Shown here: positions 24,853 to 43,279 of the stretch, in pieces
Numbering within the stretch: the first letter of the stretch is position 1
Layout: each line of letters starts with the position of its first letter
Assembly: GCA_000092065.1 (NCBI GenBank)
Contig: CP000583.1
Length of the DNA stretch: 64,000 nt
From: Ostreococcus lucimarinus
Lineage: Eukaryota
Direction: 5' to 3' (one strand)
Made by a program: the position numbers and the translations under genes
The notes under the pieces: model-generated
The model's database searches: none
What the model was told of the DNA's origin: nothing
The model's input: only the letters and a program-made list of their open reading frames with translations

Positions 24853-26148
24853 ATGGATGCGATGCGCGCCGTCGCGGCGCCGCGCGCGAGCGCCGCGAGA
24901 CCCGCGCGCGCGGCGCGCGACGCGCCGACGCGCCGACGCGTCGTCGCCGGCGCGTCGCGGTACGCGCTGTGCGCGCACGGGGAGAATCTGCCGCATCCGG
25001 ACAAGACGGCGAAGGGCGGCGAAGACGCGTGGTTCGCGCGCGTCTCGGCGGCGAACGGCGGCGGCGCGCTCGGCGTCGCGGACGGCGTCGGTGGGTTCAA
25101 CGATCAGGGCGTCGATCCGGGGCTGTACGCGCGCGTGCTGAGCTACGAGGGACTGCGGGCGTGCGACGGCGGCGACGGCGGATTCTTCGGGTCGAGCGCG
25201 AAGATCGACCCGAGGGCGATCGCGATCGAGGCGCAGGCGAAAACGATGCTGCCGGGCGCGGCGACGATGTGCGTGGTGGCGCTGGATGGGAAAAAGCTGA
25301 CGTGCGCGAACGTGGGGGACTCTGGGTTCCGAGTGGTGCGACGCGGGGGGGTGACGTACGGGTCGACGGCGGGGCAGCATTATTTTAATTGCCCGTATCA
25401 GTTGGCGTACGAGGCGCTGGCGAAGGATTGCGACAGCGCGAGAGACGCGGATGTGTACAGTTTCGACGTCGAGGCTGGGGACGTGGTCGTGGCGGGGAGC
25501 GACGGGTTGTTTGATAACGTGTTCGACGAGGAAATCGCGAGCGTGGTAAACGCGGCGTACGCGAGCGCCGGGGACGCGGCGTCGGCGGCGGAATCGGCGG
25601 CGAAGGCGCTAGTGAAGGTGGCGAGAAAGCACGCGGAGGATAAAAAGTACGACTCGCCGTACGCGCGCGAAATGGCGAAGAGCGAAACCGACAAGGGCGG
25701 CGCGCCGAAAGCCGTGGGATTGTTTGGGGGATTTCAGCAAATGCTCGGCGGTGGCAACTTGGGCGGGAAGATGGACGATATCACCGTCGTTGTTGCCACC
25801 GTCGTCGACACGGCGTCGTCGCAGCGCGAGCTCGCGCGATCCGAAGCTGTGTGCGACGCCAACACCAAGGCGCTGACCAAGGCGCGCGGTTTGGCGTCAA
25901 TCGAAGAGACCAAAGTCGCTCGTACGGTGGCGCTCCGTAAGGAAATGGACGACGCGTTCAACGAAAAAGTCGCCGAAGTAAACAAGAGAGAGAAAGCCGT
26001 GGCGAACGCCAAGTCGGAATTCACTCGCGCGCAAATCGATTCGATGGACGCGCCCACGGTGCGCAAGCTCTTACAAGAGCGCGGACTTCCCACGAGCGGC
26101 AAGATCGATCGATTACGCGATCGCTTAGCCGAAGTTAAGGCGCTTTAA
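24853..26148 (+). CDS. PP2C-family protein phosphatase (PPTC7/SpoIIE-like) with a C-terminal SAP motif.
   Basis: 431 aa from ATG 24853. Motifs: GEDAWF, GVADGVGG, ANVGDSGFRVVR, VVVAGSDGLFDNV, DDITVVVA. C-terminus: TVRKLLQERGLPTSGKIDRLRDRLAE, SAP-like. N-terminal presequence. This gene is head-to-head with the Kelch gene, 62 bp apart. Confidence 0.7.
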   Translation: MDAMRAVAAPRASAARPARAARDAPTRRRVVAGASRYALCAHGENLPHPDKTAKGGEDAWFARVSAANGGGALGVADGVGGFNDQGVDPGLYARVLSYEGLRACDGGDGGFFGSSAKIDPRAIAIEAQAKTMLPGAATMCVVALDGKKLTCANVGDSGFRVVRRGGVTYGSTAGQHYFNCPYQLAYEALAKDCDSARDADVYSFDVEAGDVVVAGSDGLFDNVFDEEIASVVNAAYASAGDAASAAESAAKALVKVARKHAEDKKYDSPYAREMAKSETDKGGAPKAVGLFGGFQQMLGGGNLGGKMDDITVVVATVVDTASSQRELARSEAVCDANTKALTKARGLASIEETKVARTVALRKEMDDAFNEKVAEVNKREKAVANAKSEFTRAQIDSMDAPTVRKLLQERGLPTSGKIDRLRDRLAEVKAL

Positions 26149-26172
26149 TGAATTATTACCTGCATATTCATT

Positions 26173-27841
26173 TTAAATTACAGTGATCGACCCGCCGTTG
26201 AGTGCGATCTGCTCGAGGAAAATGAGCGAAACGGCGACTGCGTACGTTCCGCTCACCGCGCCCAGAGGTTCGTAGTCGTAGTCCACGTAGTCGCTCGCTC
26301 GCGCCTCACCGCCGGCGTCTTCGTATTCGTCGTAGTCTGCCGCCCCGTTTGTGGACGTGTTCTTGCCGAGGCTTGTGAAATGCGTCGCTCGAGCGGTGTC
26401 CACGCCTCGAGGACCTTCGACAGCGGTGTCGTTCGACAACGGACGGATCCATCGCTTGACGCGCTCGGTTAACGTCATGTTGGCGTCGTCTCCACCACCC
26501 TGCGCGGAAACCTCGCCGTTGGCATCGGCCTCGCGAGACGCGATATCACTCTCGACGATGGAATTGACTTCGTTCACGATGCTCGTGACCGCATCGATGA
26601 TTTTCGTCGCGTCGTCGATGGCGTTGGCCACGGCGATGCCTTTTGAAATACTTCCGGCGATGGCCACCGCGGGATCGATTGCCGATGCGAAATCGATAGC
26701 GGCGTCGTAGCCGTGAAATACGATTTGGTTTGAAATCGTGTTCTCCGCCGCCGCTTCGTAGGTCGTGATCCCGACGCCTGGCGTCGCGACGCCGACCAAA
26801 GCCACCGTGATGTCCAAACTGATACGAATTTGGGGATCGACGACGTATTCTTCGAGTAAAGCGATGAATCGGTCGCGAATAGCGAGTGGTAGCGTCGCGG
26901 GAAAAGACTCGAACCAATTCGTCGTGAAAAGCTCAACGTCGTCGTACGTGACGTCCACGATTTCAGATAGATGACGTCTTTCGATCGATTCCGTCGACGT
27001 ACCGTTTCTTCGCTGAAGTGCGCGTTTTGCCGCAGCGCGCAAGTCGACTGGATGTTGAACTTGCGTTATGACCTCCGCACCTTCCGGGAGTTTTCGCGCC
27101 CTGGCTTCAGAAGCGCTTAATAATCGCCGTCGGCGTCTATTGGGCGCGCCTTCGATGGATTCCGCCGCATACTCGTACTCGTACTCGTATTCAGTGTCCT
27201 TGGGTTGTAATGCCTGTTGGATCGCCATCGCGGCTAATCCACTGACCTCGAAGCCAAATCCATAGAATTGTTCGACTAGTTCGCACACACCGTCAGTCGT
27301 CGAAATCGCATCGTCGCATCGCATACTCACCGCCGAACGCGCCGCCCGCAAAGAATTCGCTGAACACGGTGTTATCGAGCGTCGAAGATCCATCGATGAC
27401 CCACTCTTGCGCGAGTACGGTGTCCGTGGTGACACCAGAGCTGAAATCCTGAATCACCCCCGACGCGAAGCTCGCGAACACGTTGGTGAATTTGGTGAAA
27501 CCCAGATCAGTCGTCAAGATCATTTGCAGAAATTCCTCCACCATTCCACCGTTATTGTTCACCGAGTTGCGAAGAATGAGCAGTGCGACGCGTAAGAAGG
27601 TCGTTGGCTGAATGATAGCGTTAAGAATCACTCCTGCGGGACCGACAGGGGCGGTCAAGAGTTTCCTCGATGAAGCGGCTGTCCCTGAGGCGACGGATGA
27701 AGCGGCTGTCCCCGAGGCGACGGTGTCGCCAACCGCGGTGTCGCCAACCGCGGAAGCGCGAGGAATATAAATCGTCGTCGTCGCAATAACGAGCGCACAC
27801 GCGCACGCCACGGCCAACACGAATTTTAGAGTACGATTCAT
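26173..27841 (-). CDS. Secreted hypothetical protein, predicted in two exons. Exon 1 is 27841-27331 and exon 2 is 27275-26173 on the minus strand. A 55-nt GT-AG intron (27330-27276) joins two overlapping track ORFs.
   Basis: Signal-peptide-like start: MNRTLKFVLAVACACALVIATTTIYIPRASA, from ATG 27841 (an alternative ATG is at 27856). ORF 27293-27949 ends shortly after a GGTGAGTATGCG donor. ORF 26173-27435 is offset by one base. Splicing GTGAGT...CTAG joins ...FFAGGAFG to VEQFYGFGFEVSG... in frame. There is an internal EYEYEY repeat. No domain recognised. Confidence 0.45.
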
Positions 27842-28015: not shown

Positions 28016-29233
28016 TCACGCGACCACCATTTTGTCGCGCTGCTTTGCAACCTCTTCGGTGGACATTCCCATTTGCGCAATGACTGCAAGGACGTCCGCG
28101 AGCGCGATGACGCCTGTCGGCACGCCGGCGTCGTCGACGACCCACACTCTATGCACCGCGTTCACGTCCATTTTCGTCAAAACGTCCGTGAGTGTATCCG
28201 ATGGCCTGCACGAGACCACCAATCTCTCGCGATGCCGCATCAACGCGGCGGCAAACGCGCTGGTGTTTGGGTTGTACAGCCCACCCGATTGTTGCGCGGG
28301 CGTGGACACCGACAGTTTGTGCGCGTGCAGAAGGAACTCCGCGACGGGTAGAGCCAACGCGGCAAACGAAGCGCCTCCTCGTAAATGCGTCAAATCAGAC
28401 TCACTCAATGTCCCAATCAGCGTCCGCGTGGCTTCGTCTACGATTGGCACCGCCCCGACGCGGTGACGCTCCATTTCGCGAAACGCCTCGATCGTCGGTG
28501 TCGACGCGCCGACGAAGGCGATCCCCGGCGTGCTCGCCAACCCAAGCTCATTCACGGTGGCTTCAGTAAACAGTGGCGTGAGAATGTCGCGATTGGTGTG
28601 CAAGTACATCACGATGTCCGATTGCGAAACGATGTGTTCAATCGCGTTGTCTGAATTCATGACGGCGAAGCGATGCGGAAGCGCGCGCAAACGAACATCA
28701 CCCGGCTTTTCGCTCGGCGAGATATACAGGCATCGCTCCAAACACTCGGCCAGAGATTGTGTCGCCGTAGCGCTCTTCCATATCACAGTCCCATCCCACT
28801 TCGTTCTCGCTTGCTTCAGCGGCAGACTTTCGATCTCGAGTCCGATCGTCGCCATTCGTCCCATGAGACCGAGAACGTCGTCGTCCCGCGCGTTCAATTC
28901 GGCTTTGTCGCACGCCTCGATCAGCGTCGTCACGAGATCACCGTTCGATAGAAAGCACAGCGCGTCGTATGCACCGACATCTCGACTCGCACCAGACTTG
29001 TACCGCACTAACGGCATCGAAGAGACGCGGAACCGGTTCATACTGCTCAACGCTTCCTGAAACGAAGAGTCGCTAGACAAAACCAGCGTACATTTGCCGC
29101 GAAGCGATTCAGGTTGGTCACCGCACGTCTTTCCCGCGAGTGCATGTCTCTCAGTGAGATACTTTGCCAAGTTGGTGCGGCTAAGCACGCTGAGAGGTGT
29201 TTCTTTCATCGCCTTCGTGTCGGTGGATGCCAT
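28016..29233 (-). CDS. CBS-domain pair protein (SNF4/AMPK-gamma-like arrangement of CBS motifs).
   Basis: 405 aa from ATG 29233. Repeated CBS-like segments (...RVGAVPIVDEATRTLIGTLSESDL..., ...AVHRVWVVDDAGVPTGVIALADVLAVI...). Only 25 bp separate its ATG from the stop of the upstream LRR gene on the same strand. Confidence 0.55.
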   Translation of the reverse strand: MASTDTKAMKETPLSVLSRTNLAKYLTERHALAGKTCGDQPESLRGKCTLVLSSDSSFQEALSSMNRFRVSSMPLVRYKSGASRDVGAYDALCFLSNGDLVTTLIEACDKAELNARDDDVLGLMGRMATIGLEIESLPLKQARTKWDGTVIWKSATATQSLAECLERCLYISPSEKPGDVRLRALPHRFAVMNSDNAIEHIVSQSDIVMYLHTNRDILTPLFTEATVNELGLASTPGIAFVGASTPTIEAFREMERHRVGAVPIVDEATRTLIGTLSESDLTHLRGGASFAALALPVAEFLLHAHKLSVSTPAQQSGGLYNPNTSAFAAALMRHRERLVVSCRPSDTLTDVLTKMDVNAVHRVWVVDDAGVPTGVIALADVLAVIAQMGMSTEEVAKQRDKMVVA

Positions 29234-29258
29234 CCAGAGTCGCGTTGTGCTGACGAGG

Positions 29259-31133
29259 CTACGACGCGGATTGGGAAAACTCGCCGGCGCGAACGCGATC
29301 GCGCTTGACCCTCGCCAACATCTGTTCGATTTTGGATTGAGCTTTAAGCAGACGCTGCGGCGTGCCTAAACCATCCTGTGCGAGCGCTAAGTCGTTCACC
29401 ATGGATTTCAACTCGGCGCGTAAGTTCGACGCGCTGGCGGATCGCGACGCCGAGGCGGAAATCCCGCTCGAGTCTTCGTCGCCGGTGAGGATGAACGATC
29501 GAAGCGAGGCTTCATCGTCGTCTTGCAACGATCCGAACTCGTCGTCATCGCCGTCATCGACAAGAATAGACTCACTGTCGTCCGTGAACGCGAAACTCCT
29601 TCGATTCACCGTCGACGGCGGCGGACGCAAATCTGGAGAATTGTCAAAGGAGTCGTCGATACCGCGGTGGCTTTGCTCGTCGTGGCGAGTGGCCGCGCGC
29701 ACGAGCCGCACGTTTGACCAATGCGATGGCTTTCGCGACGATGTCGTCTCCGGCGTTTTCGATTTGGATGTCGACCCAAATACTTCTCTTGGCGAATGGA
29801 AATCATCGTCTTCGTCGGCGGAGGACGCGCCGGCGTTTGCGTCGTCGGCGTCGTCGCTCACGGCGTCTCGAGTGGGACGCGATTTCGTTGCCGATCGAAT
29901 CGGTGAAATCATGCGCAGCGCGTCCATGGAAATATCATAATTCGTGGATCGAACGCGACCACTGGGCGAGGGTCTGCCGATGTCGTCGCCGTCGTCGCCA
30001 TCGCTTTCTGAACTCACGTCGCGCGATAACCAATGCTCGGTGCGATCGAGCGGCGGGTCCTCTGGATACAGTCGCGCGCCTTCGACCATGAACGACGCGT
30101 CAACGTCGTCTTCACTATCTAAACTACTGGTCGTGTCATCACCGTTTTCGCGACGCGCGTTGACTGGAACGAACGAAGATACCGAAAACATCGAGCAGCT
30201 TTGCTCGTCGCCCGCAGAGGAGCGCCGCCGAGCGTCAAATCCGCCACCAAGCATAGAATCCGTTGGTGCGCAAACGCTATGCAAATACTCCCCAAGGACC
30301 CACGGCGGCGCTTGTTCTTTCAGCATCGACAGCAAAGGTTCGCTCAACTCGCCCGCGTCGTTTCGAAACAACCGGCTCGCGGCGAGAGCCCACGACGAGC
30401 CGAGCGCCGCGGCGCCGTCGCACGTCCGCAACGAAGGCGCGCAAAATTTCGCTACCGCCCGCGCGTCGTATCCATAATGATGCGCGCGCGCATCGATTGG
30501 ATTACCCCTAAATCTCAAATTCGCTAACCGAGGAAAGTACCTCAAAAATCGAAGCTCTTGCACGTCGGCGAAGTCGTTGCCGCCGACGTCCAAATCCGTA
30601 ATCGTGGCCGGCGTCAACCGCTCGATCCCCTCCAACGACGCGATCGCATTCTCCCTATAAACCACCACTCGCAACCCGACGCACGACGAGCAATCCACCA
30701 TCGCCATCAAGCAATTATCCGACAGATCCAGCATGCGCAGCGCGGGAAATCCATCCACGCGCGCGTCCGCGAACGCGTTCGACTTGAGCGAAAGCGTCCG
30801 CAGCCGCGTCATCGCCCTCCCCAGCCCCTTCACGCTCGAGATCGCGTTCCCATCCGCGACGACCACTCGCAGCGTCGACCCACACGCCCGTAATTCGTCC
30901 AGCGTCGTCAACCGATTCTCCGACACGTCTATCGCGCGCAATCGCTCGCAACTCTCGACGCCCTTGAGCGTCGTTAAACCGTTCGCTCGCAAATCCAACC
31001 GCGTCAACGACGCCCACGACGCCTCCGCGCGCGCCGCGCCGATCGATGTCGTCGCCAACCATCGCGCGCGATCGCCAGACGCCTCCGCGCGCGCGTCGTC
31101 GTCGTCGTCGTCGCTGAAAACGCTTCGGGACAT
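29259..31133 (-). CDS. Leucine-rich-repeat protein (SDS22/LRRC-like LRRs) with a long Ser/Asp-rich disordered C-terminal half.
   Basis: LRR units: LTRLDLRANGLTTLKGVESCERLRAIDVSENRLTTLDEL...LRTLSLKSNAF...LRMLDLSDNCL...LDVGGNDFADVQELRFL. I placed the start at ATG 31133 (MSRSVFSDDDDDD). The track ORF extends to 31247 and would overlap the COA5 gene on the other strand. Confidence 0.5.
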   Translation of the reverse strand: MSRSVFSDDDDDDARAEASGDRARWLATTSIGAARAEASWASLTRLDLRANGLTTLKGVESCERLRAIDVSENRLTTLDELRACGSTLRVVVADGNAISSVKGLGRAMTRLRTLSLKSNAFADARVDGFPALRMLDLSDNCLMAMVDCSSCVGLRVVVYRENAIASLEGIERLTPATITDLDVGGNDFADVQELRFLRYFPRLANLRFRGNPIDARAHHYGYDARAVAKFCAPSLRTCDGAAALGSSWALAASRLFRNDAGELSEPLLSMLKEQAPPWVLGEYLHSVCAPTDSMLGGGFDARRRSSAGDEQSCSMFSVSSFVPVNARRENGDDTTSSLDSEDDVDASFMVEGARLYPEDPPLDRTEHWLSRDVSSESDGDDGDDIGRPSPSGRVRSTNYDISMDALRMISPIRSATKSRPTRDAVSDDADDANAGASSADEDDDFHSPREVFGSTSKSKTPETTSSRKPSHWSNVRLVRAATRHDEQSHRGIDDSFDNSPDLRPPPSTVNRRSFAFTDDSESILVDDGDDDEFGSLQDDDEASLRSFILTGDEDSSGISASASRSASASNLRAELKSMVNDLALAQDGLGTPQRLLKAQSKIEQMLARVKRDRVRAGEFSQSAS

Positions 31134-31164
31134 CGCGCTTCGGGACAACACAGCGCGACGCCGA

Positions 31165-31383
31165 ATGTCGAAGAGCTGCTCTGGCATGCTCGCCGAGTTC
31201 CTCGATTGCGTCGAGTCGTCGGCGTGCGTCAAAAAGCACGGACACACGCTGAAGCAGTGCGCGTCGCCGACGTGGACAGAGCACGCGCCGAGCGAGTGCG
31301 AGGTGAAGCGTTCGAATTACTTTGCCTGTCGAAAGGGACAACTCGACATGCGCGCGCGATTGCGCGGGAATAAGGGATATTGA
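31165..31383 (+). CDS. COA5: COA5/PET191-like twin-Cx9C cytochrome c oxidase assembly factor (72 aa).
   Basis: MSKSCSGMLAEFLDCVESSACVKKHGHTLKQCASPTWTEHAPSECEVKRSNYFACRKGQLDMRARLRGNKGY*. The terminal LDMRARLRGNKGY matches the remembered COA5 terminus LDNRARFRGRKGY. The Cys spacing is conserved. In the track it is hidden as the tail of a 216-aa ORF (30733-31383) that lies antisense to the LRR gene. Confidence 0.6.
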   Translation: MSKSCSGMLAEFLDCVESSACVKKHGHTLKQCASPTWTEHAPSECEVKRSNYFACRKGQLDMRARLRGNKGY

Positions 31384-31410
31384 AACGCGCGCGCCGGAAA
31401 GAGAACGGTG

Positions 31411-32400
31411 ATGGAGGCGCGACGCGCGATGGCGCGCGCGCGACGCGCGTCGGGATGGCGCGGTGGTGGAAGCGCTCGAGCGTCGAGACGACGCCGAAAC
31501 GCGAAAGCGCGCCGCGCGGCGAATCGCGACGACGCGGTGACGTACGAGTGCGTGGATGGTGAGACGTATTGCGATGGACGTCACGCGCGCGCGCTCGGGC
31601 GCGCGTGCGCGGCGCTTCGAACGAGGTGTTTTTATGAGTTTGAGCGCGAGGAGACTTTTACGTACGATTTTTCGTACGACGAGGACGACGATTCGGCGGC
31701 GTACCTCAGAGCGCGGTTACGATGGTGGGAGGATCGAATCGCGAGCGAGACGTTGCGAGAACCGATGATGCGTCAGGCTGGCGTGCGCTCGCTGCGTACG
31801 TTCGCAGTGTTGGCGAGAACGGACGCCTCCGGTCGACGAGCGGGATTCGAAGAGAGTTCGACGACGGGCGAGACGCCAGCAGACGCAGAGGCTTTGCGTC
31901 GCTGGAGTATTGTGCACGAAGGTGCCGATGCAAACGCAGACACTAGCGTTGCGGAATCGCATCTCGCCGTCGTGGGTACGCTTGACGTGCATCTGGGGGC
32001 GAAATTGCCCGGGGAAATACTCGTCGGTCGACGACCGTTCGCCGACGCGTCCGCCGACGCGTCCGCCGACGCCGCCAACGATCAATACGGCTTTGACCCG
32101 CTCGCCGTCGTTGACCCTCCACGAGCGTACGTCTTCAACGTCTGTGTCGCTCCCGAATTCCGCGGTCGCGGCGTCGCGGAAGCCATGCTGCGCGTCTCCT
32201 ACGAATATCTCGCGTCTCGCACGCGCGCCGCAGTCGTCTACATTCACGTCGAGCGCGACAACGTCAGCGCTCGACGCGCGTACGAAAAGGCTCTCTTTTC
32301 CATCGAGAGCGAAGAGACGCCCGAGCAGAGCGCGAGCGCCGCGCACGAGCCTCGTATTTTGCTTTATCGAGAAATTCTTCGCGCGTCGCCGGCCTTTTGA
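31411..32400 (+). CDS. GNAT-family N-acetyltransferase.
   Basis: Acetyl-CoA binding motif: YVFNVCVAPEFRGRGVAEAML...VVYIHVERDNVSARRAYEKALF. The track start at 31408 is GTG. The first ATG is at 31411. Confidence 0.55.
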   Translation: MEARRAMARARRASGWRGGGSARASRRRRNAKARRAANRDDAVTYECVDGETYCDGRHARALGRACAALRTRCFYEFEREETFTYDFSYDEDDDSAAYLRARLRWWEDRIASETLREPMMRQAGVRSLRTFAVLARTDASGRRAGFEESSTTGETPADAEALRRWSIVHEGADANADTSVAESHLAVVGTLDVHLGAKLPGEILVGRRPFADASADASADAANDQYGFDPLAVVDPPRAYVFNVCVAPEFRGRGVAEAMLRVSYEYLASRTRAAVVYIHVERDNVSARRAYEKALFSIESEETPEQSASAAHEPRILLYREILRASPAF

Positions 32401-32502: not shown

Positions 32503-33948
32503 ATGGCGTCGATCGTGCTCGCCGGCGGTGCCGCCGCGGCGTTCTTCCGCCAGAAATCCGCGACGAAATCGCAGCTTCAAAAGACAACGGTCGAGAATGA
32601 GTCACAGCTTCAAAGCGTCCATCGCGCGCGTATCGACGCCGAATGCGAGCTGGCGCTCATGCACGCCGATCACGAAGACGCGCTTGAACGACTGCGCGAA
32701 AGCGAGGCGCGAAACGCGGCGTTGGAGGCGACGATGAAAGAAATGGAGGAACAGCGGGAGGAGACGGCGTCAAAGGTGAGGGCGGAAAAGGAACAGACGA
32801 CGAAACTTCGGTTCTCGTTGACTGTGGCGAATGGCAGGATCGATAAAATGCGCAAAGAAATCGATGCGCTCAAGGCGCAGGTAAGCGAGGAGGGGAAACT
32901 GTCGGAGGAGAACAAGAGATGGAAAGAACGGGCCAACGACGCGTCGAAAAATTTGGAGACGACGAGGGGACGCGTGCGAGAATTGACGGAGAAGAATGGG
33001 GAGTTGGTGAAGGAAAAGTCTAGGCTTGAGCACGAGCTCGAGGATGCTAAGGCAGCAGAAGCAAAACTGGAGACGGCGCGTGCGCGAAACGTGCAGTTGA
33101 CCGATGAATTAGACGCGAAAAACCAAGAGTTGGCGGCGTCGACGCACGCTTTGCAAGATGCAGAGGTCAATTTTCGACACTCTGAGAGTCAAAATGTGCA
33201 ACTTGGGATCGAGGTAGAAGAATTGCGGGAACAAGTCGTCGCACTACGCGCTCAGGAGATTGAGTTACAAGCCGAGTTGAAAGAAATGCTCGAAACATTG
33301 AATATGGTGACGTCGAACGAGCACGAGGGCGAATTCGAGCGTGACGCCGAAATCGAGCGCATGATGGAAAAGTTGAGCACCCCATTGTCCGAACGTCAGG
33401 GATCTAGTATGGCGAGTGGTGATATGCAGGATGTCAGCCATAGAATGGCCGTCCTGATGGCTCGTGTGGAGGAGTGCAAGACGCCGATGGGGATTTCGAA
33501 AGCGATAGCGGAGTTGGATGAGCTTCAAGTCAAGCTCAGAGATCTTCAGGGCGACGAAGACGACGATATCACTCCGCCTGACGTGAACTCACCGGACGCT
33601 TGGCCCATCTCGCCTCCGTCACCGGTGACGACGTCTAAGAATATATCCGATGATGTTAACATCGGTGAGATTACGCCGCAACGAAGCTTGAACTTTGGCG
33701 ACACGTCGCCGCCGCCGAAAGGCGCCGCGAAGGATGGCATGTGCGCCAAGTGTGGTATCATCCCCATCGCCGATGGATGCGACGGTCGATGCGCGCTCTG
33801 CCATGCGAAAAAGCAGCAAAAGCTCGCGGCTTCGCCGTTACAGCGTGGACTTGCAAGTTTCAAGGACGTCTTTTCGCCATCGAAAGAGAAGAAGGAGGCA
33901 CGATCGGCCAAAAAGTCGAACAAGAAGAAAGGGAACAAGAAAAAGTAA
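32503..33948 (+). CDS. Coiled-coil protein with a C-terminal Cys cluster (possible zinc ribbon) and a Lys-rich tail.
   Basis: Long heptad-rich region: ...LEATMKEMEEQREETASKVRAEKEQTTKLRF...ELEDAKAAEAKLETARARNVQLTDELDAKNQEL... C-terminus: CAKCGIIPIADGCDGRCALCHAKKQQK...SAKKSNKKKGNKKK*. The track start at 32419 is TTG. The first ATG is at 32503. Confidence 0.45.
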   Translation: MASIVLAGGAAAAFFRQKSATKSQLQKTTVENESQLQSVHRARIDAECELALMHADHEDALERLRESEARNAALEATMKEMEEQREETASKVRAEKEQTTKLRFSLTVANGRIDKMRKEIDALKAQVSEEGKLSEENKRWKERANDASKNLETTRGRVRELTEKNGELVKEKSRLEHELEDAKAAEAKLETARARNVQLTDELDAKNQELAASTHALQDAEVNFRHSESQNVQLGIEVEELREQVVALRAQEIELQAELKEMLETLNMVTSNEHEGEFERDAEIERMMEKLSTPLSERQGSSMASGDMQDVSHRMAVLMARVEECKTPMGISKAIAELDELQVKLRDLQGDEDDDITPPDVNSPDAWPISPPSPVTTSKNISDDVNIGEITPQRSLNFGDTSPPPKGAAKDGMCAKCGIIPIADGCDGRCALCHAKKQQKLAASPLQRGLASFKDVFSPSKEKKEARSAKKSNKKKGNKKK

Positions 33949-33977
33949 TTCGCCTATTACACATGTATGACAACGGT

Positions 33978-35483
33978 TTACATCCTTGCCTTGGTAAATA
34001 TCCCTTTCCCGTCGAACACTATCGTCGTCGCGCGTCTTCGGTCTTGCGCTATCCGCACTACTTCCATCGCGGCGATGTGTGCGGCGACGCATGCCGTCGG
34101 CGCATCCATCCATCCCGAGAACGACGCACGCGTGAAGGACGAGTCCGTGCCTAAACTAACATCCACAACACACGACCCCACGCTCGTACTCGTAATTTCA
34201 ATCACCGGCGATTTTGCCTCTCTCGCGATGGCGACGACTTCGTCGGCGGTGGCGCACGCGCTCGTGCGAACCACGACGTGGTATTTGTACGTTTCTAAAT
34301 CGTCTAAATCGCACAAATCGTCCACTTCGCAATCGTGCCGAACAAATACTTTTGATCCACTCGCCCCGTATACGTCGACGTTACCGACGCCGACGGCGGC
34401 AAGCGCGCAGACGCACGCGTCGTTGGCGAGCGAATCCGTGCCGCACACAAGGACGTACATCTCTCTCAGCTTAGCCAACGCGTCGTAGCCGAAAAGTCTC
34501 GCGTGCGTATCGAAACCCTCGCGATCTTCATCACCGTCTTGCGCGTCGTCGGCATCCATATCGTCCCCGCTCGGAAGAACCTCGTATTCGGACGCGTTTG
34601 GCACGGGCGCCGAGTCCGGGCGATCGGGCTTGTACAACGCCAACGCCTCCACGTGCGTCCACTGATCGCACTCGCGCGCCACTGCGACGGCTTCACTCGC
34701 GTCCAAATAACTCAATATCTTACTCGCCACGACCGCGGCGACGACGCCACACATAGACGCCGTCTCCGGCGCCTCGTCGTCGTCGCCGTTTCCCGGTAAT
34801 CCTTTCCTCGCGTCCGCGCCCGTGATCCCCAACAACGGCCGCGTCTCGGGATGCGCGCGCAAAAACTCCCAGTGCAATCCCGCCTGCAGTTCATCTCGCG
34901 CCTTCGCGTCCGCGTCCACGCCCGCGCTCGACGCCGACAGCGTCTCCGCTAATCTCGCCGTGGCGCTCGGTCGCAGCGCCTCGTACAGCGTCTTCGATCC
35001 CGCGCCGCCGTCGTCCACGAACACGCACCCCGTCGTCGCCTTCGCGCGCGCGTACGCGAACGCGCACGCGCCACTCCCGAGTCCATCTTCGTCGTCGCGC
35101 GTTCTTTTGCACGCCTCCGCCATCGCGCACGCCTCGCTCAGCGCCCCCGGGCCGCACCGCACCGCGACGCGCGCCCCCGTCGCTCGAATCTTCTCCGCGT
35201 CCAGCGCTTCGCCCTCGCGCGTCGACGCGCGCGCGACCGCTCGACCGCACTGACGGTTGATGGTATCAACGCACGCGTCGACGGCGTCGCGTCCGACGTC
35301 GCCGAGCGTCAGCGCGCCGCCCGCGGCTTCGTAATCTTCGAGCGAGACGCGGCGATGTCGACGCGCGTCGTGCACGATGAGCGTCGGATGCGTCGGCGCG
35401 CGGGCGAGAACCGCGGCGAGGGCGTGCGCGACGCCGCCGGACACGCCGGAGATGAGGATCGCGGGAGGATCGGCGCCGCGCAT
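33978..35483 (-). CDS. Hypothetical protein with a Rossmann-type NAD(P)-binding N-terminus. A ThiF/E1-like segment is tentative.
   Basis: 501 aa from ATG 35483. N-terminus: ILISGVSGGVAHALAAVLARAP (GxxGGxA). Internal segment: YVLVCGTDSLANDACVCALAAVGVGNVDVYG, weakly ThiF-like. Function not established. Confidence 0.4.
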   Translation of the reverse strand: MRGADPPAILISGVSGGVAHALAAVLARAPTHPTLIVHDARRHRRVSLEDYEAAGGALTLGDVGRDAVDACVDTINRQCGRAVARASTREGEALDAEKIRATGARVAVRCGPGALSEACAMAEACKRTRDDEDGLGSGACAFAYARAKATTGCVFVDDGGAGSKTLYEALRPSATARLAETLSASSAGVDADAKARDELQAGLHWEFLRAHPETRPLLGITGADARKGLPGNGDDDEAPETASMCGVVAAVVASKILSYLDASEAVAVARECDQWTHVEALALYKPDRPDSAPVPNASEYEVLPSGDDMDADDAQDGDEDREGFDTHARLFGYDALAKLREMYVLVCGTDSLANDACVCALAAVGVGNVDVYGASGSKVFVRHDCEVDDLCDLDDLETYKYHVVVRTSACATADEVVAIAREAKSPVIEITSTSVGSCVVDVSLGTDSSFTRASFSGWMDAPTACVAAHIAAMEVVRIAQDRRRATTIVFDGKGIFTKARM

Positions 35484-42325: not shown

Positions 42326-43279
42326 CTACTTTCTAGAGTCCGCCCAAATCGCAGCCGCTACCAATCCGACGACGACGTTTTCCATTTCGCGCTTTCGATT
42401 GAGAAAATTCAAGACGAACATCATCGCCGCAGCGTGCGGTTCCACCGCCGTTCGCAACACGGGAACCACCGCCGACGTCGAGATCAACATCAACGCCTGA
42501 TTGAGCACCAGCATCGTCCGTTGTCGCAAATACTTACGTTTGACGAGCGTTTGCAGGAAGAATTCGAGCACGTACGCCGCATTGAGCAAGAACCAAAACG
42601 CGCGCCACTCAAACAGGCTGATCAAATCCACCGGACGCATCGCCAGACTGACGTTTAATCCGTGCAAAAGCACCGTCTTATACAGCACATACTGCCACTT
42701 CTTCACGCGATACATGCAGCTCTCGAAATCTCGCATCCCGTCCCGATAATTGTTAGAGAACGAATTGATCGGAAAACGACTGCGCGCCGTCCACGCCGAA
42801 GTCGCCAGCAAGCACGCCGTCGCGCGCGTCTCCGCCGAACTTCTCACGAACCACGGCTGAGCGACGCAGTGCACGTACGCAATCTGAAATCCATTCACCA
42901 CGTGGTAAAACGCGTGCTCGAGCATCTCCGCCCCCGTCACCGCCGTCTTCGCGTGCAGCACGCCGCTCCGCACGCCGAGCTGTCGCCGCTCCGCGTGCTC
43001 GTGCGCCTTTGCAAAGTCCCAATGCGCCGTCAGCGTCAGCACGAGCCCACTGACGAACAACATCGCGTCCATCGTCGCCGCGTCGAGGTTCGTCTTTCGA
43101 TGCGCGACGACGTGCGCGCAATATAACGTGAGCACGCCGAGGTGCAGGCTTCCCGAAATTCTGTGTCGACGACCGAATTTACCCAAAAACGCGCGTCTCG
43201 AGCGCGCCGAGACGAGAAGAACGACGGCGAAGTACGACGCGATACACAGAGACGCGCATTCGCGCGCGTCGACGCGCAT
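42326..43279 (-). CDS. Multi-pass transmembrane protein (hypothetical).
   Basis: Hydrophobic segments: ASLCIASYFAVVLLVS, AMLFVSGLVLTLTAHW, VLLHGLNVSLAM, WFLLNAAYVLEFFL, LMLISTSAVVPVL, AMMFVLNFL. The track start at 43363 is GTG. The first ATG is at 43279. Confidence 0.45.
   Translation of the reverse strand: MRVDARECASLCIASYFAVVLLVSARSRRAFLGKFGRRHRISGSLHLGVLTLYCAHVVAHRKTNLDAATMDAMLFVSGLVLTLTAHWDFAKAHEHAERRQLGVRSGVLHAKTAVTGAEMLEHAFYHVVNGFQIAYVHCVAQPWFVRSSAETRATACLLATSAWTARSRFPINSFSNNYRDGMRDFESCMYRVKKWQYVLYKTVLLHGLNVSLAMRPVDLISLFEWRAFWFLLNAAYVLEFFLQTLVKRKYLRQRTMLVLNQALMLISTSAVVPVLRTAVEPHAAAMMFVLNFLNRKREMENVVVGLVAAAIWADSRK

Follow-up and report, generated by a model that had tools for sequence, protein, structure and literature searches.

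A conserved 72-residue orthologue of COA5/Pet191 upstream of a GNAT-family gene in Ostreococcus lucimarinus

COA5 in human and Pet191 in yeast are members of one protein family, and it is for yeast and human only that its mitochondrial intermembrane-space location and its requirement in complex IV assembly are known (PMC7909247, PMC11711468). The motif of the family has been described as CX10C-CX9C and not as a true twin CX9C (Gladyck et al., PMC7909247), and in yeast Pet191 the cysteines C5, C15, C32, C46 and C56 are needed, fully or partly, for respiratory growth (PMC7909247). The other described systems to which the present locus can be compared are the bicistronic loci of green algae, known from Chlamydomonas, Chromochloris and Auxenochlorella (Gallaher et al. 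2021, PMC7896298; Duenas et al. 2025, PMC11892635). Their first ORF has a median length of 291–357 nt and their inter-ORF distance a median of 40–183 nt, and in Auxenochlorella they include loci of the small COX assembly factors COA4-like and COA6 (PMC11892635). In this algal polycistron work colinearity was regarded as "suggestive, but not dispositive" (Gallaher et al.). Here we describe a COA5 gene in a 64,000-nt stretch of Ostreococcus lucimarinus DNA (assembly GCA_000092065.1, contig CP000583.1), hereafter called the window, compare it with its relatives, and consider how it may be expressed together with the gene that follows it. The features of the locus are as follows.

29259–31133, minus strand: LRR-protein gene, divergent from COA5; 624-aa model, or 642 aa from the alternative ATG at 31187; Pfam LRR_4 and LRR_8.
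30733–31164, plus strand: spurious 144-codon extension of the COA5 frame, judged non-coding on this strand; antisense to the LRR CDS and unconserved.
31134–31164, no strand: 31-bp spacer between the divergent start codons of LRR and COA5; the same 31-bp spacing is seen at loci L004–L006.
31165–31383, plus strand: COA5/Pet191 CDS of 72 codons plus TGA stop, intron-less; full-length match to Pfam PF10203.
31384–31410, no strand: 27-bp spacer from the COA5 stop to the GNAT ATG, free of ATGs and of further in-frame stops.
31411–32400, plus strand: gene for a GNAT-family acetyltransferase of 329 aa; alternative start at 31429; Pfam Acetyltransf_1, E 1.4e-10.

Translation of 31165–31383 on the plus strand gives MSKSCSGMLAEFLDCVESSACVKKHGHTLKQCASPTWTEHAPSECEVKRSNYFACRKGQLDMRARLRGNKGY, followed by TGA. 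This 72-aa peptide matches Pfam PF10203 (Pet191_N) with an E-value of 7.7e-23 and 81 bits, against a curated gathering cut-off of 24.4 bits, and the match spans profile positions 1–67 of 67; with such a value and such coverage the level of chance resemblance is far exceeded. The next-ranked Pfam families, CHCH with 15 bits and NDUF_B7 with 12 bits, both fall below their own cut-offs. The peptide is a small stand-alone protein that carries the N-terminal domain, and its 72 aa lie within the range of about 70–110 aa used for COA5/Pet191. It has cysteines at positions 5, 15, 21, 32, 45 and 55, spaced as C5-x9-C15, C21-x10-C32 and C45-x9-C55, and its C-terminus carries LDMRARLRGNKGY. An earlier note, made from the letters of the window, had proposed a COA5/PET191 gene on the basis of the cysteine pattern and a conserved terminus, and had suggested a Pet191_N profile search and a look for orthologues in related algae. 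Pattern and terminus are both present, the profile search is significant, and the identification is borne out. Its wording "twin-Cx9C" stands only in part: it is literally true of the sequence (5–15 and 45–55), but the family motif in the literature is CX10C-CX9C and not a true twin CX9C (PMC7909247).

The protein shares with the COA5/Pet191 family both the full-length profile match and the CX10C-CX9C motif. Compared with yeast Pet191, cysteines 5, 15, 32, 45 and 55 of the window protein correspond to C5, C15, C32, C46 and C56 to within one residue, and the MSKSC N-terminus places the first Cx9C at 5–15 as in yeast. Human COA5 (C2orf64), at about 74 aa, is similar in size to the 72 aa of the window protein; its loop between the Cx10C and the last Cx9C has about 5 residues, and the window protein has a longer one of 12. 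The algal and the plant-type relatives have in common a conserved basic C-terminus whose last residues form a GNKG[YF]-type motif.

A search of 80 metagenome loci and a large protein collection recovered 27 distinct algal orthologues of COA5. Twenty-six of the 27 are 68–72 aa long, the remaining one reaches 81 aa by an internal insertion, and all of them start with MSKSC and end with GNKG[YF]. Neither of the alignments made (A1 and A2) shows variation at C15, C21, C32, C45 or C55, and C5 is invariant in A1 and missing from two N-truncated sequences of A2. Among six Ostreococcus-type lineages the pairwise dN/dS of the 72 codons is 0.12–0.44. In a library-wide phmmer search with COA5 (E <= 1e-3), 211 representative clusters were found, which are mostly 64–120 aa long and match at their N-terminal part, and plant-type sequences of the form MAKSC...RIRGNK are among them. 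The orthologues of L068, L056 and L082 also score above the PF10203 cut-off. In four low-GC lineages (GC 0.44–0.49; L056, L068, L086, L089 and related loci) COA5 is 47–54% identical to the window protein. Around COA5 in these four lineages long ORFs are sparse and no GNAT gene lies nearby; these relatives probably have more introns or less compact genomes.

The 72 codons are also the last part of a longer ORF (30733–31383, 216 aa), as the earlier note had said and as translation confirms. Since this ORF is uninterrupted and ATG-initiated, and since the metagenome pipelines of JGI and ENA call either the 216-aa ORF or variants of 192–260 aa, it has to be asked whether the true product is an N-terminally extended COA5. 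We give this reading next to no chance. The Pet191_N match within the 216-aa ORF is restricted to residues 146–213, and the first 144 residues have no Pfam match. These upstream 144 codons lie opposite the stretch of the minus-strand gene that encodes the LRRs, in antisense, as the earlier note had seen (the Pfam LRR matches occupy residues 42–190 of the 624-aa model, which is about 30563–31010), and the two frames share their third codon positions. The antisense frame is free of stops because the LRR gene is GC3-rich (GC3 = 0.70) and codon position 3 lies on position 3, a frame that is known to remain open in such genes. The open frame upstream of the COA5 Met extends for 168 codons in the window, versus 42, 93 and 12 in three other Ostreococcus-type lineages, where stops interrupt it, and a comparison of the upstream open stretches across Ostreococcus-type lineages found unrelated sequences with no conservation. 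The reference annotation, too, is a 72-aa and not a 216-aa model. Orthologues of 68–81 aa, the dN/dS values and the unconserved extension together mean that the short gene is real and selected at the protein level and that the long ORF is an artefact, as the earlier note had supposed. On these comparisons the 216-aa product appears effectively refuted, and the 144-codon extension is best seen as a by-product of the antisense strand of a GC3-rich LRR gene and not as a part of the protein.

It could also be argued that the 72-codon frame, which lies on the same strand only 27 bp upstream of the GNAT ATG, is merely a regulatory uORF or 5' leader belonging to the GNAT mRNA and no gene in its own right. 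This is very improbable: the amino-acid sequence is under purifying selection, the protein belongs to a family widespread in public protein collections, plant-type sequences included, and in about 30 loci of the four low-GC lineages COA5 is found without a neighbouring GNAT. Family membership, cysteine pattern, conserved start and length, purifying selection and a non-conserved extension are all established for 31165–31383. We are therefore close to certain that it is a genuine, conserved and intron-less nuclear gene, the O. lucimarinus orthologue of human COA5 and yeast Pet191, translated from the ATG at 31165 to the exclusion of the upstream 144 codons.

The gene product would be a cysteine-rich helical protein of 72 residues. 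An AlphaFold2 model built on an 8-sequence alignment has a mean pLDDT of 76.9 and places the two Cx9C pairs on helices 5–17 and 43–68. When this model was compared with the PDB by Foldseek, nothing reached significance (best E about 8), and human Coa6 and TIM9–TIM10 appeared only among the non-significant matches. The 72-aa sequence searched against solved structures met no COA5 structure and only chance matches to transthyretin (E 0.6–1.1). By homology, and from the family literature, we infer that the protein may be imported into the mitochondrial intermembrane space, where it would be stabilised by intramolecular disulfides between the Cx9C/Cx10C cysteines and would act at the inner membrane, on the side facing that space, early in the assembly of cytochrome c oxidase (complex IV). 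Nothing contradicts the identification as COA5.

The earlier note had regarded the gene as hidden, and on this point it was mistaken. The exact 72-aa protein is already present as GenBank ABO95073.1 / RefSeq XP_001416780.1 of O. lucimarinus CCE9901, where it is a "predicted protein" of the same gene, and as UniProt A4RV50 under the name COA5. The orthologue of Micromonas pusilla CCMP1545 (XP_003055401.1) is annotated as "cytochrome c oxidase assembly protein, mitochondrial". COA5 is thus an ordinary gene, already known and correctly annotated in the O. lucimarinus reference genome, and its own importance is very small, as it is an expected housekeeping orthologue. The note's warning that a naive annotation would either overlook the gene or make it too long does hold for metagenome calls: those of JGI/IMG, MetaClust and ENA are over-extended to 192–260 aa, and COA5 is left uncalled in 10 of the 10 ENA metagenome places examined (L090–L099), where the LRR protein is instead started at the 31187 ATG and given a length of 642 aa. 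Wrong COA5 calls are confined to such metagenome gene callers. The locus can serve as a worked example of how prokaryote-style callers, when applied to metagenome contigs of picoeukaryotes, over-extend or drop genes of less than 100 aa that abut GC3-rich antisense ORFs. It is likewise an example of how product names can leak onto adjacent genes, for IMG labels the neighbouring GNAT gene (31411–32400 and the homologues P0028–P0030 and P0047–P0054) as "COA5". Apparently GNAT took the name over from its neighbour, or a merged reference model was the source. A representative search of the relatives for fused COA5–GNAT proteins, as a source of this naming, found none. Two long relatives, P0123 and P0190, were considered as such fusions and rejected, being run-on gene models without GNAT. 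One of the two (421 aa) joins a plant-type COA5 to a protein that by eye looks eIF3h/MPN-type, and in the other (363 aa) COA5 is followed by apparently non-coding read-through.

Upstream, the spacing given by the earlier note is correct: the LRR gene starts head-to-head with COA5 at a distance of 31 bp, counted from the minus-strand ATG at 31133 to the COA5 ATG at 31165. The second minus-strand ATG, at 31187, would make the LRR gene overlap COA5 by 23 bp, and it is this one that the metagenome callers have chosen. It is the reverse reading of a CATG (31185–31188) at the conserved Gly7–Met8 codons of COA5. Alignments of LRR orthologues come within 5–9 residues of the Met at 31133, and the first ATGs of orthologous LRR genes lie 39–53 bp from the COA5 ATG (L029, L007, L033). 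The orthologue alignments thus favour 31133 over 31187 as the probable LRR start. In the sampled Ostreococcus-type lineages the genes follow one another in a conserved order, CBS – LRR – COA5 – GNAT – coiled-coil protein. Small gaps are found elsewhere in the window as well: in crude ORF models (29233–29259, 26148–26173, 33948–33978, 43278–43279) the LRR stop is 25 bp from the CBS ATG, convergent pairs are separated by 24 and 29 bp, and the two genes of one divergent pair have 2 bp in common. With gaps as small as these, overlapping UTRs or co-transcription must be common in the region.

Downstream, the first ATG after the COA5 stop is that of GNAT at 31411, so the 27 bp given by the earlier note are confirmed. 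The question here is whether COA5 is the first ORF of a dicistronic COA5–GNAT mRNA, on which ribosomes would pass the COA5 start and reach GNAT through leaky scanning or re-initiation. This would rival only the mechanism of expression and not the identity of COA5, and we consider it possible but doubtful. In its favour is the position of the genes: in 13 of 13 representative high-GC lineages a GNAT orthologue lies directly downstream of COA5 on the same strand, while the upstream neighbour varies. The gaps between the two genes measure 27, 40, 47, 30, 12 and 55 bp in Ostreococcus-like lineages, 14, 14, 14, 96, 105 and 105 bp in Micromonas-like ones, and 7 bp in the L082 lineage (GC 0.48); at a further locus, L061, the GNAT ORF is apparently split and the gap is about 137 bp. 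With a first ORF of 207–246 nt and this short inter-ORF distance, the pair resembles the published bicistrons (PMC11892635). Against this, the inter-ORF distance is not much shorter than that of colinear monocistronic genes. Other tandem gaps in the window are 25, 102, 109, 138 and 160 bp and upward, so that 27 bp stands at the low end and is not distinct, and since comparably small gaps separate unrelated genes of the window, the COA5–GNAT spacing is no outlier in this genome.

The start-codon contexts are similarly divided. The base at -3 is a pyrimidine at the COA5 ATG in 11 of 13 lineages and a purine at the GNAT ATG in all 13, as leaky scanning would have it, but the background of purines at -3 is only 14 of the 28 genes of the window, and the argument from a weak Kozak context at COA5 is therefore low-powered and was down-weighted. 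No out-of-frame ATG precedes GNAT in the six Ostreococcus lineages, where the ratio of observed to expected ATGs is 0.45–0.62; outside Ostreococcus there is no such depletion, the ratio being about 1 in the Micromonas-like loci and 1.57 in L082. Moreover, COA5 has two invariant in-frame Met codons (M8 and M62) with G at -3, which would capture scanning ribosomes, and in about 30 loci of the four low-GC lineages COA5 occurs without GNAT within 4 kb. On the transcript side, an MMETSP ORF of GNAT (325 aa, starting MEARRAMARA) begins at the 31411 ATG and is flagged "complete". If this flag requires an upstream in-frame stop, the transcript contig reaches at least into the COA5 stop codon. A search with GNAT for RNA-derived contigs returned ten places, all of them metagenome DNA of 10 kb or more. 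No paper that we found reports the COA5–GNAT locus as bicistronic, and a search for COA5, PET191 and GNAT in the supplementary dataset of Duenas et al. (PMC11892635) did not find the pair, the COA4-like and COA6 loci being the only ones listed.

Compared with the green-algal bicistronic loci (PMC7896298, PMC11892635), COA5 is alike in being a short first ORF for a small mitochondrial assembly factor, and the pair is alike in its very short inter-ORF distance, its colinearity kept across genera and the purine at -3 of the second ORF. It differs in that the contigs recovered here are all metagenome DNA, in that the host genomes are so compact that short gaps are common, and in that COA5 has internal in-frame AUGs in good context. 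It is conceivable, though we would not expect it, that COA5 and GNAT form a dicistronic unit kept throughout Mamiellales, in Ostreococcus, Micromonas and the L082 lineage alike. If this were true, algal polycistronic expression would gain an example from Mamiellophyceae, and nuclear polycistrons of green algae would extend to the most compact genomes of free-living eukaryotes; a complex IV assembly factor would be joined to an acetyltransferase that may be targeted to an organelle; and the engineering of Ostreococcus would have a natural compact inter-ORF element of 7–55 nt. What residual interest the locus has lies in this expression architecture, with the dicistron as its tentative and rather unlikely form, and in several annotation errors.

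In the window GNAT continues the reading frame of COA5, the two being parted only by one TGA and the 27-nt stop-free spacer (31381–31413), and read-through would therefore yield a fusion protein. As a general mechanism such read-through to a COA5–GNAT fusion was rejected, since in most other lineages the gap is not divisible by three (40, 47, 55, 14 and 7 bp).

The GNAT model itself deserves a remark. RefSeq XP_001416781.1 (210 aa, starting MRQAG at about 31774) is about 120 residues short at its N-terminus relative to the conserved sequence, and O. tauri CEF97330.1 (300 aa) shares the conserved part upstream of MRQAG, with the motif ACAALRTRCFYE; the RefSeq model thus appears to be N-terminally truncated. 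Environmental sequences of O. lucimarinus type differ from the window at two repeats. A low-complexity part of GNAT (about 32080–32110) has an indel of a 4-aa SADA repeat, which makes the protein 329 or 325 aa long, and the Asp run of LRR, read as a Ser run on the antisense strand (about 31090–31110), differs by one unit. Both differences are repeat-length polymorphism in natural populations.
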